A DNA stretch of 64,000 bases from an uncultured Verrucomicrobiota bacterium. Its GTDB lineage: Bacteria; Verrucomicrobiota; CALLYA01; CAYNBQ01. The position numbers and the translations under genes were made by a program. Positions 49,379 through 53,835 of the stretch are shown here, piece after piece. The notes under the pieces are model-generated. The model saw nothing but the letters and a program-made list of their open reading frames with translations. It was not told the DNA's origin and did no database searches. Every line of letters starts with the position of its first letter. The first letter of the stretch is position 1. The stretch is from contig CAYNBQ010000004.1 of the NCBI GenBank assembly GCA_964395275.1, positions 504 through 64,503 on the forward strand, given 5' to 3'.

Positions 49379-50482
49379 ATGGCAAAGGTCGTTCTGGAGC
49401 ATGTCACGAAGGTCTTTCCGGGCGATGTGGTCGCCGTGAAAGACGCCAACCTGGAAGTCGAAGACCGGGAATTCGTCGTTCTCGTCGGCCCCTCGGGTTG
49501 CGGCAAGTCGACCACCCTGCGGATGATCGCCGGCCTGGAGGAAGTCACCGAAGGGCGCGTCTTCATCGACGGCAAGGAAGTCAACGACGTCCCCCCGAAG
49601 GATCGCGATATCGCCATGGTCTTCCAGAACTACGCGCTCTACCCCCACATGACGGTCTGGAAGAACATGGCCTTCGGACTGAAGCTGCGCCGCTATCCCA
49701 AAGCGGAAATCGAGAAGCGCGTGAACGAAGCGGCCGAGATCCTCGGGATCAAGGAGCTGCTCAACCGGAAGCCGAAGGCCCTCTCCGGCGGCCAGCGCCA
49801 GCGGGTGGCCGTCGGCCGCGCCATCGTCCGCAAACCCAAGGCGTTCCTCTTCGACGAACCGTTGAGCAATCTCGACGCGAAGATGCGCGTGCAGATGCGC
49901 ACCGAGATCAGCAAGCTCCACACGCGGTTGTCCTCCACGATGATCTACGTGACGCACGACCAGGTCGAGGCGATGACCATGGGCGACCGGATCGTCGTGA
50001 TGAAGGACGGCGTCATCCAGCAGGTCGCCGATCCCCTGACGCTGTACGACAAGCCGGCCAACCTCTTCGTGGCGGGATTCATCGGCAGTCCGCCGATGAA
50101 CTTCTTCGACGGAAAGATCGAACGGGACGGCAACGGCTTCTGGTTCCGGGAACCCTTCTTCCGGGTCCGCGTCGAGGAGGGCATGCAGCGGGCCCTCGAA
50201 TCCCACGTCGACCGGGAAATCGTCATGGGCATCCGGCCCGAACAGATCAGCGACCGTCTCTACGTGAACCAGCCGAACCCGGACTGGATCGTCCCGGCCT
50301 CCGTGGACGTCGTCGAACCGATGGGATCGGAGGTCTACCTCTACCTGAACACGGGCGCCACCCCCTTCGTCGCACGCGTCGATTCGCGCGTGCAGGCGGA
50401 GGTCAACCAGCGGCTCGAGATGGTCTTCGACATGCGCAAGGCCCACTTCTTCGACAAGAAGGACGGCGCCGTCATCGTCTGA
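49379..50482 (+). CDS. Sugar/glycerol-3-phosphate-type ABC transporter ATP-binding protein (MalK/UgpC/MsmK family) with C-terminal TOBE/regulatory domain
   Basis: Walker A (GPSGCGKST), Q-loop, ABC signature ([10 protein letters not shown]), Walker B ([11 protein letters not shown]), H-loop, and a MalK-like C-terminal beta domain. No permease or binding-protein genes adjacent. Confidence 0.95.
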
Positions 50483-50501
50483 CGCCGGGACCCGACGCGC
50501 C

Positions 50502-51635: not shown

Positions 51636-52033
51636 TGGCATGGCCCGAATCCCACGTCTTCTCCCGCGGCCAGGCCGCCCGCCGGATCCTCGTCTCGATC
51701 CTGCTCGGCGTTGCGATGACGCAGTTCGTCCTCGGAATCACCGTTCTGGAGGGACGGTTCTCTCCCGGAATCTTCTTCCTCTACTGGGGATCCTGTTTCC
51801 TGCTGGTGATGACCGTTCTGGCCCTGGCCGTGCACGACCTGCGGGAAATCCGCGCCGAAGCCCGCCGGGAAAACCGCGACCTGGTCCGACGCCATTTTCT
51901 CGACGACGATTTTCTCGAACGGATCCGCGAGGCGACCGAACCCGAAGACGCCGAACGCGGCCCTTCCCCTCCCCGCCCCCCTTCGCCGCCTCCGTCCGGT
52001 CCCTCCCGGGCCCGGCAAAAGGAGAATCCATGA
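51635..52033 (+). CDS. Small membrane protein (2-3 TM) with Pro-rich C-terminal tail
   Basis: TGATG overlap with the upstream gene and ATGA overlap with the downstream gene. Hydrophobic helices (ILVSILLGVAMTQFVLGITVL; IFFLYWGSCFLLVMTVLALAV) and a PPSPPPSGPS tail. Confidence 0.45.
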   Translation: MAWPESHVFSRGQAARRILVSILLGVAMTQFVLGITVLEGRFSPGIFFLYWGSCFLLVMTVLALAVHDLREIRAEARRENRDLVRRHFLDDDFLERIREATEPEDAERGPSPPRPPSPPPSGPSRARQKENP

Positions 52034-53835
52034 AAACCTCTTCCCGCTCCCGACGCCTCCTCGGCGTTTCGATGGTTCTCCTGCATCTGGGTGCGGCCGC
52101 CGCATTCGGCGCCGGCGACTGCCGCCTCTACGAGGCCGCCGGCGACGAGGCCGTCGGATACCTCCGCGTTCCCCGCCCCTCGGATTTCTTCGGACGCCTG
52201 GACACGATCCTGGCGCCCGCCGGGTTCCGTTCCCGCATGATCATGCCCCTGATCGGCGACCGCCTCTTCCAGAACCCCACGCTGGGCGGCATCGACCTGA
52301 CCCGCCCCTTCACGGTCGTTTTCCTCGACCCCGAACGTCATGCCAAACCGTACGCCTTCTCCCTGACGACGACCGACCCCCGGCTGTTCATCCGGTCCGT
52401 CGGCGGAGATCCCGTCCAGGGCCTCCGGCTCAACCCGGAGACGGCCGCCTCGCGGGTGAAGGAGTTCGTCAAGGAATCCTTTGTCTTCGACCGCGAGGGG
52501 TACATGGCGGCCCTGCGCGCCGGCGAGAACCCCGATCTGCAGGATTACCGTCACGCCGAGACGATCCGGTTCTACGTCGGCAACGCCGGCCGGTTCACCG
52601 TCGGCGCCGACGATCGGGACCTGGTGATGCGGACCCTGAAGAGCGAGGGCGTCTCCCCCCGGGAGATCCTGGAGGGCGATCTCGTCGTCCATCTCCGCCC
52701 CGAAAAGCTGCGGGCGATGCTCGATCGGATCACGGGGGACGAACAGCCCTTTGCCGCCGCGGCGTCGTTCGATACCGGGCGGCTGCGCGCCGTCCTCGGT
52801 TCGATGCTCGATCAGCTCGAAGCGGTCGAGAACGCCCTGGCCTTCGGCACCGGGCGCCTGCGGCTGCGATGGGGCGCGGCCGCGAGACCGGAGAGCCCGC
52901 TTTCGCAGTGGATCTCGCGCCAGAGCCCCGGCCGAAGCGACCTGATGCGCTTCGTCCCCGAGGAGAGCATCGGCGTCATCCGATCCTCGGTCCGGCTCAC
53001 CGGGGAGGAATGGCGCCGGATCCTTTCGGCCTTCGCCTCCCTGGAGAACGCGTCGGACGAACCGCTGAAATTCTCCGGCGAAACCGCCGCCGCGCTCGAT
53101 GCGTGGGGCGAAGCTTCCGTCGGAAGCAGCTTGAACGTGCTCCTGGCCAACCCCCCGGGCAGCGGCGGATTCCGCACGCTCCTCATCTACGAGGTGAAGG
53201 ATCCCGAGCGGGCCCGCACCGCCCTGCGCACGCTCTATTCCGACCCGGAGATCCTGCCGTTGATCACCGGGTCGATGATCCCCCCGGGCCTGACCTCCAC
53301 CTATCGAACGAACGTCGCCCAGTACCGGGGATACGACATCGACAGGTTCCATTTCTCCGAACCCGAAAACGAAACCCCGGCCTCCGTCCAGGCGTGGCGG
53401 ACGATCCGGACCTTCTACGGGGACAACCCCGCCGGGTACGTCGCCTGCATCCCGGGCTACGCCGTGGTGACGACGGGAATGGACGGACTGACCACCCTCA
53501 ACCAGACCCTTTCCCGGATCCTGGAAAACCGTTCCACGCGGTTCACGGCGTCGCCCCGCTACCAGAGCCACCTCGCCCGGGTGCCCTCGGACGCCAATAT
53601 CCGCTTCTGGATCTCGCTGGGCGCCTACGTCTCGGCCGTCGCCCCCGCCCTCCAGGGCGCGGCCGGGACGGAACCGGATCCGGCGGCGCTCTTCAGGGAC
53701 CGGTCGCTGGATATTTCCGGATTCGCCCGATTCCGCGACGCCGTCGTTCAATCCGAACTCGTTCTGCCCGTAACCGACCTCCTGGAGATCGTCCGATCGT
53801 TCGGACTCGGCCCCTCGCCCGGCGCCGGGATGTAG
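52030..53835 (+). CDS. Secreted hypothetical protein (601 aa)
   Basis: AAGGAG RBS and a signal peptide (MKTSSRSRRLLGVSMVLLHLGAAAAFGAG). No recognisable family. Translationally coupled to the small membrane protein gene. Confidence 0.55.
   Translation: MKTSSRSRRLLGVSMVLLHLGAAAAFGAGDCRLYEAAGDEAVGYLRVPRPSDFFGRLDTILAPAGFRSRMIMPLIGDRLFQNPTLGGIDLTRPFTVVFLDPERHAKPYAFSLTTTDPRLFIRSVGGDPVQGLRLNPETAASRVKEFVKESFVFDREGYMAALRAGENPDLQDYRHAETIRFYVGNAGRFTVGADDRDLVMRTLKSEGVSPREILEGDLVVHLRPEKLRAMLDRITGDEQPFAAAASFDTGRLRAVLGSMLDQLEAVENALAFGTGRLRLRWGAAARPESPLSQWISRQSPGRSDLMRFVPEESIGVIRSSVRLTGEEWRRILSAFASLENASDEPLKFSGETAAALDAWGEASVGSSLNVLLANPPGSGGFRTLLIYEVKDPERARTALRTLYSDPEILPLITGSMIPPGLTSTYRTNVAQYRGYDIDRFHFSEPENETPASVQAWRTIRTFYGDNPAGYVACIPGYAVVTTGMDGLTTLNQTLSRILENRSTRFTASPRYQSHLARVPSDANIRFWISLGAYVSAVAPALQGAAGTEPDPAALFRDRSLDISGFARFRDAVVQSELVLPVTDLLEIVRSFGLGPSPGAGM

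Follow-up and report, generated by a model that had tools for sequence, protein, structure and literature searches.

What does a membrane protein with two GGDEF-like domains, both of which have lost the catalytic motif, do directly behind a sugar-importer ATPase that has no recognized importer nearby? This question is raised by four co-directional genes, here called g1 to g4, on the forward strand at positions 49379-53835 of a 64-kb stretch of DNA from an uncultured Verrucomicrobiota bacterium (contig CAYNBQ010000004.1; the whole 64,000-nt stretch is referred to as the window). In order, they encode an MsmK-type ATP-binding cassette (ABC) ATPase, a single-pass membrane protein with two GGDEF-like domains (D1 and D2), a small membrane protein, and an exported protein (Table 1). 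Our favored answer is that g1, g2, and g4 represent a conserved cassette in which g2 would be a receptor of the PelD/BcsE style, coupling cyclic di-GMP (c-di-GMP) bound at an inhibitory site (I-site) to MsmK, g4, or both. We give this reading a probability of roughly 0.45, slightly short of even odds.

Diverged GGDEF-like domains in g2

Single-profile tools barely detect g2, so the GGDEF call needed profile-profile comparison. The Pfam GGDEF model (PF00990) matches D2 only (aa 255-341; E 7e-4, 19.8 bits, below the gathering threshold of 23.8), a narrow GGDEF hidden Markov model (HMM) built from 9 sequences barely detects the protein, PDB GGDEF domains reach it at E 0.2-0.3 by phmmer, and a word-index protein search with g2 returned essentially the query only. 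Looking up the exact g2 protein in assemblies gave no record. By hhalign, D1 aligns with the GGDEF proteins of the syntenic loci L094/L095, described below, at E 2.6e-5 over columns 34-183 of 217. Profile comparisons with shuffle controls used the segments aa 47-175 (D1) and aa 190-350 (D2). D1 scores 33.0 against the syntenic GGDEF proteins (shuffles 12.1±2.2, maximum 18.2; z = 9.5) and 25.2 against active GGDEF domains (shuffles 11.3±1.6; z = 8.5), in both cases over nearly the whole domain. D2 scores 28.5 against active GGDEF domains (shuffles 12.1±2.0; z = 8.0) with most domain columns aligned, and the hhalign E-values of this comparison are 4.4e-3 and 6e-4.

An earlier note, made from the letters of the sequence, had described g2 as one transmembrane (TM) helix plus two GGDEF-fold segments and had left the significance of the resemblance to profile searches. 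Both points hold: hydropathy gives a single TM helix, and the profile-profile scores (z 8.0-9.5) far exceed those of the shuffles, although Pfam alone stays below threshold. Altogether, these comparisons indicate that both segments are real, catalytically degenerate GGDEF homologs and that D1 is the ortholog of the GGDEF protein encoded in the syntenic loci; the predicted GGDEF fold of g2 is supported by homology, not by structure. Because RRERK directly follows the TM helix, the positive-inside rule would place the C-terminal domains in the cytoplasm.

In the profile alignments, SETRI (D1) and ATDAL (D2) occupy the position of the active-site (A-site) motif GG[DE]EF, confirming the suspected loss of the catalytic motif from both domains, and g2 is thus predicted not to be an active diguanylate cyclase. 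The inhibitory-site motif RxxD, which the first reading had singled out for checking, is retained as R108NRD in D1 and R261PED in D2, each five residues before the pentapeptide. The protein has no further copy of RxxD, and the spacing of these two (-5) is the canonical one for an I-site; by composition, the chance of RxxD at a specified site is p ~0.01, and at both sites ~1e-4. The RNRD of D1 aligns with the RRDD and RKSD of the syntenic GGDEF proteins, which themselves align with the RSSD I-site of WspR. The syntenic pentapeptide/RxxD pairs are GGQQF/RRDD in L094, AGQQF/RKSD in L095, and AGQQF/RKTD in L100, and all three proteins carry the Arg of an AER motif at +30, the second I-site position. 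Based on the alignment to the syntenic proteins, D1 is also without 13 residues in the substrate-binding helix region, and the degenerate GGDEF domains of PelD and BcsE show the same kind of decay (PMC7439463). It is from the RxxD motif that we infer c-di-GMP binding by g2.

The msmK-GGDEF-g4 trio in other lineages

To see the cassette in context, we compared the window with genomic and metagenomic loci (given as L-numbers). The genomic context of ten g4 relatives was examined, and L099 and L100 were added from a metagenome scan with P0012 and P0015, which returned these two loci only; the metagenome scan with g4 and its two closest relatives gave no match. The trio of msmK, TM-GGDEF gene, and g4 homolog recurs in two lineages (L094/L099 and L095/L097), and the GGDEF-g4 pair is found in a third (L100; Table 1). 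The earlier note had asked whether all four genes are co-located in relatives: the trio and the pair are, while g3 has no homolog in any compared locus. Since g3 is found nowhere else, the conserved unit is three genes, not four. Judging from these comparisons, g3 is a lineage-specific addition in this genome, and the second GGDEF-like domain of g2 is, like g3, an addition in this lineage.

The genes flanking the trio differ, with a metallo-beta-lactamase (MBL)-fold hydrolase gene directly upstream of msmK in the window and a DUF2064 gene (L094:1-363, L095:1781-2524) in the relatives, which argues that the three genes are retained together. They have stayed side by side although g4 is down to 22-25% identity and BLAST no longer detects the similarity of the GGDEF proteins. 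In a comparison of 85 MsmK sequences, the three linked to the trio group in a clade of their own; the cassette has therefore probably been inherited within one lineage. L100 opens (L100:1-250) with a tandem repeat of short period that reads IEIGIEIEIG… or ID*ID*… in translation, and the sequence upstream of the GGDEF-g4 pair is truncated there.

Pairing of msmK with GGDEF genes also occurs in five Omnitrophota-type loci. Here, msmK is directly followed or overlapped by a TM-GAF-GGDEF gene with an intact GGEEF and mostly no RxxD, and none of the five loci includes a g4-like gene. A second GGDEF gene follows the first in three of the five (L008, L012, and L020), and the GGDEF genes of L020 are in turn followed by genes for a HAMP histidine kinase and a ROK kinase. 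Taken with the trio clade, these loci show that msmK-GGDEF adjacency is present in two MsmK clades that are separate from each other. By tblastn and HMM searches, no homolog of g2, g3, or g4 is present in any of the 80 loci listed from a genome-collection scan with g1.

In three further loci, whose g4 homologs are more distant, a conserved ~255-aa protein with a TM helix and a coiled coil is encoded upstream of the g4 homolog (L085:851-1627, L091:480-1274, L092:7028-7789), and its C-terminal beta-rich segment is conserved (…VLYYDKTWNF.VLD.GKKKG…RIATVDDD…). We considered these proteins as decayed GGDEF proteins and rejected the idea, as hhalign shows no GGDEF relation. In L085 and L091, these genes are themselves preceded, at some distance, by NYN_YacP.

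The orphan ATPase g1

Family searches agree with the initial identification of g1 as a complete MalK/UgpC-type ATPase with a regulatory C-terminal domain: Pfam gives ABC_tran (2e-34), OB_MalK (8.5e-14), and TOBE_2 (4.5e-6), and the NCBIfam UgpC subfamily model scores 492 bits (cutoff 432). The translation includes intact Walker A, Q-loop, LSGGQ signature, Walker B (FLFDEP), and H-loop (VTHD) motifs. Among the matches listed, identity to MsmK-like genes of many phyla is 57-69%, and the top matches come from metagenome-assembled genomes of the Planctomycetota-Verrucomicrobiota-Chlamydiota (PVC) group and Omnitrophota. As the earlier note had it, no MalFG-type permease or solute-binding protein was recognized in the 64-kb window, based on a crude gene call and spot Pfam checks. 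Lack of linkage to permeases is the norm for the multitask ATPases MsmK, MsiK, and MsmX, so the absence of a permease near g1 is unremarkable. With all motifs, the OB/TOBE domain, and a location away from permeases, g1 resembles MsmK, MsiK, MsmX, and MalK, and we propose that it is the cell's MsmK-type ATPase, a kind that normally powers several CUT1 importers encoded elsewhere.

In four spirochaete loci, a signaling-type gene stands directly after msmK (L047:11177-12310, L055:8587-10374, L075:11214-12944, L077:5681-7432); a weak match to a methyl-accepting-chemotaxis signaling domain was confirmed for L047 and L075.

The exported protein g4

First described as a secreted protein of no recognizable family, g4 does have a signal peptide, but it also has relatives: exhaustive phmmer searching of 1.84 billion cluster representatives found 53, most of them ~600 aa long and the closest 43% identical. 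Word-index searches with g4 and with a g4-family profile returned essentially the query only. Pfam has no match to g4 at E<=1, and 21 g4-family members scanned at E<=0.01 match no family, PF11832 (DUF3352) included in both cases. The connection to DUF3352 instead comes through the protein P0057, which Pfam identifies as DUF3352 (7e-24): the g4-family profile (A1) matches it at E 8.4e-6, and hhalign pairs it with the g4 family at 78% probability and E 1.8e-5, co-linear over the C-terminal third. DUF3352 proteins and g4 also have in common the length class (~550-650 aa) and the signal peptide, whereas no g4-family member scanned matches PF11832 itself. By this profile link, the g4 family is a distant relative of DUF3352. 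A literature search on DUF3352 found no paper. Another protein, P0058 (L081:9582-12051), gave a weak and probably spurious match, in which 8% of the query aligns at 37% identity, when the g4 profile was searched; it has TatA/B/E genes on both sides.

Homologs of g4 have clear AxA-type signal cleavage sites. The N-terminus of g4 (window 52030-52119; MKTSSRSRRLLGVSM…) includes a twin-arginine-like SRRLLG, and the L094 homolog has TRRFQTL; export could thus be by the twin-arginine translocation (Tat) pathway rather than Sec. We rejected a longer g4 (737 aa, from 51622), as the extension is Arg/Pro-rich, homologs begin at MKTSS, and AAGGAG precedes 52030. The 601-aa g4 and a separate g3 were kept because the homolog starts and the ribosome-binding site (RBS) fit 52030.

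An AlphaFold2 (AF2) model of g4 built with the family alignment shows repeated alpha/beta modules (predicted local distance difference test, pLDDT, 86; predicted template modeling score, pTM, 0.84). When this model was searched against the PDB with Foldseek, the sole significant match was TP0453 of Treponema pallidum (E 9e-4, probability 1.0), which covers one module only (template modeling score ~0.42-0.46 on the target and ~0.2 on the query; root-mean-square deviation 9-12 Å). TP0453 is a membrane-associating periplasmic lipoprotein, and we treat the match as a lead for g4, not a functional assignment. The matches that Foldseek lists next (PsbP, the sensor domain of PknH, and EagT6) are weak.

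Relation to known receptors and ATPases

PelD, the c-di-GMP receptor for Pel exopolysaccharide in P. aeruginosa and B. cereus, is a membrane-anchored protein with a non-catalytic cytoplasmic GGDEF domain that senses c-di-GMP via an RxxD I-site and a downstream Arg (PMC7112168, PMC7439463). The RxxD of g2 is at the same position, in both domains, and D1 is partly without the substrate-binding region, as reported for PelD and BcsE. However, PelD has four TM helices, a GAF domain, and a single GGDEF domain and is encoded in the pel operon with PelE, PelF, and PelG, whereas g2 combines a single TM helix with two GGDEF-like domains, gives no GAF match, lacks a glycosyltransferase neighbor, and has msmK as its partner. 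BcsE is a degenerate GGDEF I-site receptor that acts with the membrane partner BcsF and the ATPase BcsQ in c-di-GMP-dependent inner-membrane control (PMC7439463). The BcsE-BcsF-BcsRQ system of cellulose secretion of the E. coli type offers an analogous cast to g1-g3, with g2 as the receptor, g3 as the small membrane protein, and g1 as the ATPase; unlike g2, BcsE is soluble, and BcsQ is a ParA/MinD-type rather than an ABC ATPase. There is no synthase at g1-g4, and the sequence relationship is limited to the GGDEF fold. LapD-LapG is similar in concept, as a periplasmic protein is controlled from the cytoplasm by the degenerate c-di-GMP receptor domain of a protein encoded next to it. LapD, however, binds through a degenerate EAL site and also carries HAMP and periplasmic domains, while g2 has no periplasmic domain or EAL, and g4 does not belong to the LapG-type proteases.

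Most examples of degenerate GGDEF receptors come from exopolysaccharide secretion systems, and the known regulators of multitask MsmK ATPases are phosphotransferase system (PTS) proteins and transcription factors. We know of no multitask sugar-ABC ATPase that has a GGDEF protein as its partner or is under c-di-GMP control, and a literature search for a link between MsmK and c-di-GMP, or for its pairing with a GGDEF protein, found no paper. The parts of the cassette are of known types; their association is undescribed. On the grounds of comparative genomics and motif retention, it suggests a signaling link, likewise undescribed, between c-di-GMP, sugar uptake, and the cell envelope. A link among msmK, GGDEF, and g4 would tie c-di-GMP to carbohydrate uptake or envelope function in PVC-type bacteria, which are mostly uncultured and little studied, and it would give the g4/DUF3352-like family its first functional context.

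Proposed mechanism and alternatives

We propose that g2 is anchored in the inner membrane by its one helix, with two dead GGDEF domains in the cytoplasm, and that it would make no c-di-GMP and bind it instead, in the manner of PelD and BcsE. Its conformation would probably be switched by an intercalated dimer of c-di-GMP that bridges the two I-sites. We further infer contacts with MsmK, g3, or g4 and a physiological output; gene linkage points to MsmK, g4, or both as the target. In a first output, MsmK would be modulated via its C-terminal regulatory domain, such that sugar uptake tracks the c-di-GMP level; in a second, the exported DUF3352-like g4 would receive the signal by way of the TM helices of g2 and g3. 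These outputs seem the most likely because g2 is translated right after MsmK and the pairing persists across lineages. The regulatory domain of MalK is a docking site for regulators such as EIIAGlc and MalT. The earlier idea of a c-di-GMP-responsive envelope or export module thus gains support in part: a putative receptor module is conserved with msmK, while the four-gene unit fails, as g3 is not conserved.

Several observations weigh against this reading. The Pfam GGDEF score of g2 is under the gathering threshold, D1 has no match to Pfam GGDEF, and D2 shows no signal against the syntenic GGDEF proteins (11.3, compared to shuffles of 12.4±1.7). An AF2 model of g2 from the single sequence reaches a pLDDT of 38. 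The second I-site Arg (R390 in PleD and R395 in PelD-Bc, ~30 residues downstream) has an approximate counterpart in D1, R137, that is one off in the alignment, and D2 has K293/K294 instead of Arg at this position. As to the outputs, g2 is without a periplasmic domain, which makes a route to g4 less obvious, and msmK genes are usually unlinked to permeases, so the presence of msmK needs no special explanation. The synteny could reflect inheritance within one clade, and in six g4 lineages that are more distant, neither msmK nor a GGDEF gene adjoins the g4 homolog, which makes the linkage clade-specific.

Co-transcription might suffice to explain the position of g1. In that case, a shared sugar-import ATPase would head the operon, and the unit proper would be an envelope module of g2 (with g3) and g4, in which the membrane-anchored c-di-GMP receptor g2 controls or localizes the periplasmic DUF3352-like g4. 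The GGDEF-g4 pair is the most widely kept element, with no msmK seen upstream in L100; in other lineages, too, the gene ahead of the g4 homolog encodes a membrane protein with a single TM helix, there of the coiled-coil type; and orphan msmK genes among the 80 loci lie in many unrelated neighborhoods, e.g., with ROK kinase, HPr, or LptD-like genes. However, msmK is directly upstream in all three lineages with upstream sequence, and the L100 contig ends in a repeat ~430 nt upstream of the GGDEF gene, which limits the observation on L100 to that short stretch. The Omnitrophota-type loci, moreover, pair msmK with GGDEF independently and with no g4. We consider this explanation credible though somewhat unlikely.

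Less credible, and in our view unlikely, is that g2 does not sense c-di-GMP, with its GGDEF relics serving as a scaffold or for dimerization, or with the GGQQF/AGQQF orthologs binding GTP at the residual A-site, in the way of degenerate GGDEF domains that sense GTP. Such a role would fit the extreme divergence of D1 and D2, for which Pfam is silent or sub-threshold, the 13 residues missing from the substrate-binding region of D1, and the secondary I-site Arg that is not cleanly kept. The syntenic orthologs also retain most of the A-site surroundings (DLDHL, YNELYG, GD), and only the two acidic residues have changed to Gln, in three lineages, which resembles a selected non-catalytic nucleotide site. 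Yet RxxD stands at the exact I-site position in five of five domains (D1 and D2 of g2, L094, L095, and L100), while the active msmK-linked cyclases of the Omnitrophota mostly lack it.

Within the receptor reading that we favor, a more specific version is a c-di-GMP-gated "inducer exclusion," which we regard as speculative and improbable. Here, g2 would dock on the OB/TOBE domain of MsmK, bridging by c-di-GMP would switch the shared ATPase on or off, and the periplasmic DUF3352-like g4 would be a second, envelope-side output. If true, a multitask CUT1 ATPase would for the first time be seen under the control of a second messenger, and uptake through all MsmK-dependent sugar importers would track the messenger of the sessile/motile switch; the pairing of msmK with GAF-GGDEF genes in Omnitrophota would be explained in the same way.

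Finally, a non-canonical ABC machine, in which MsmK docks on g2/g3 and ATP drives the export or envelope insertion of g4-handled cargo, would correspond to the MsmK-energized export that the earlier note had envisaged. It would suit an operon in which an ATPase gene is so closely coupled in translation to genes for two membrane proteins and a periplasmic one, along with the weak fold match of g4 to TP0453, a membrane-associated lipoprotein, but it is very improbable: g1 is an ordinary CUT1-type ATPase with 60-75% identity to MsmK/UgpC across phyla, such ATPases couple to MalFG-type permeases via EAA coupling helices, g2 (one TM helix) and g3 (two) show no permease-like domain or other ABC transmembrane-domain features, and g3 is missing from other cassettes.

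Operon layout and genomic setting

The junctions of g1-g4 are tight. The stop of g1 (50482) and the start of g2 (50502) are separated by 19 nt, correcting the 20 nt first reported; the TGATG junction of g2 and g3, in which one base is common to stop and start, and the ATGA overlap of g3 and g4 are as originally read, as is the shared direction of all four genes. The description of g3 as a small polytopic membrane protein without a recognized family also stands, with two TM helices and no Pfam or NCBIfam family. All four genes have the coding-type pattern of G+C content by codon position (GC1>GC2<GC3; GC3 0.76-0.89), matching the neighboring housekeeping genes. The operon is bounded upstream by the MBL-fold hydrolase gene, which ends at 49259, and downstream by a convergent M28 peptidase gene (53947-54897). 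The putative promoter of g1 (Table 1) was read directly from the sequence; a consensus scan did not call a promoter there. We found no convincing candidate for an intrinsic terminator 3' of g4, and no riboswitch, other Rfam family, or tRNA within the window.

Table 1. Coordinates of the g1-g4 operon in the window and of related loci
Feature	Coordinates	Strand	Basis or detail
Putative sigma-70 promoter of g1	49310-49338	+	perfect -35 TTGACA, 49310-49315; weak -10 GATACC or ATACCA
g1, MsmK/UgpC/MalK-type ABC ATPase	49379-50482	+	367 aa; C-terminal OB/TOBE regulatory domain
g2, single-pass membrane protein, two tandem degenerate GGDEF-like domains	50502-51635	+	377 aa
g2 TM helix	50571-50639	+	aa ~24-46; hydropathy scan; RRERK directly after
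g2 D1, minimal GGDEF-like domain	50658-51017	+	aa 53-172; hhalign, shuffle controls
D1 I-site motif R108-N-R-D111	50823-50834	+	5 residues upstream of SETRI; alignment
D1 A-site position, SETRI replacing GG[DE]EF	50850-50864	+	aa 117-121; alignment
g2 Pro/Arg/Lys-rich linker	51018-51089	+	GDPPPPPPAEEKPDRRKRRRLRRLR; translation
g2 D2, full-length degenerate GGDEF-like domain	51090-51521	+	aa 197-340; Pfam sub-threshold, hhalign
D2 I-site motif R261-P-E-D264	51282-51293	+	5 residues upstream of ATDAL
D2 A-site position, ATDAL replacing GG[DE]EF	51309-51323	+	aa 270-274; alignment
g3, 2-TM hairpin, charged Pro-rich tail	51635-52033	+	132 aa; overlaps g2 (TGATG) and g4 (ATGA)
AAGGAG RBS of g4	52019-52024	+	within g3 3' end, six bases upstream of junction
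g4, exported, repeated alpha/beta modules	52030-53835	+	601 aa; signal peptide ~aa 1-30
Trio locus L094/L099 (70% GC)			DUF2064, msmK (73% identical to g1), TM-GGDEF 217 aa (Pfam 2.7e-27), g4 homolog
Trio locus L095/L097 (58% GC)			DUF2064, msmK (71% identical to g1), TM-GGDEF 215 aa, g4 homolog, RNase HII
Pair locus L100			TM-GGDEF then g4 homolog; contig ends in simple repeat ~430 nt upstream of GGDEF gene
TM-GAF-GGDEF gene after msmK	L005:3555-4775
TM-GAF-GGDEF gene after msmK	L008:3321-4604
TM-GAF-GGDEF gene after msmK	L009:1023-2255
TM-GAF-GGDEF gene after msmK	L012:11073-12395
TM-GAF-GGDEF gene after msmK	L020:11076-13381

The best MsmK matches, together with the prepilin-type protein described below, suggest that the window comes from the PVC group. 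The operon lies in a chromosome stretch of 66-70% GC that is rich in housekeeping genes, including a dcw cluster with ftsZ, a Tol-Pal-like set, rpoN, parB, dnaG, and rpoD. The Tol-Pal-like cluster (36047-40128) has ExbB/TolQ-like and ExbD/TolR-like open reading frames, a PD40-repeat TolB-like protein (37934-39226), and an OmpA/Pal-like lipoprotein (39568-40128). The window also encodes a 1294-aa secreted protein with a DUF5696 segment (25654-29538, - strand) and a 1024-aa GH106 (alpha-L-rhamnosidase-like) protein (32318-35392, + strand), which together indicate polysaccharide-degrading capacity near the orphan sugar-ABC ATPase. Downstream of the operon, a small protein (57166-57600, - strand) has a prepilin-type N-terminal methylation motif (GFTLVEISIVLGIIFIL); pseudopilin-like genes with such a motif are numerous in PVC bacteria.

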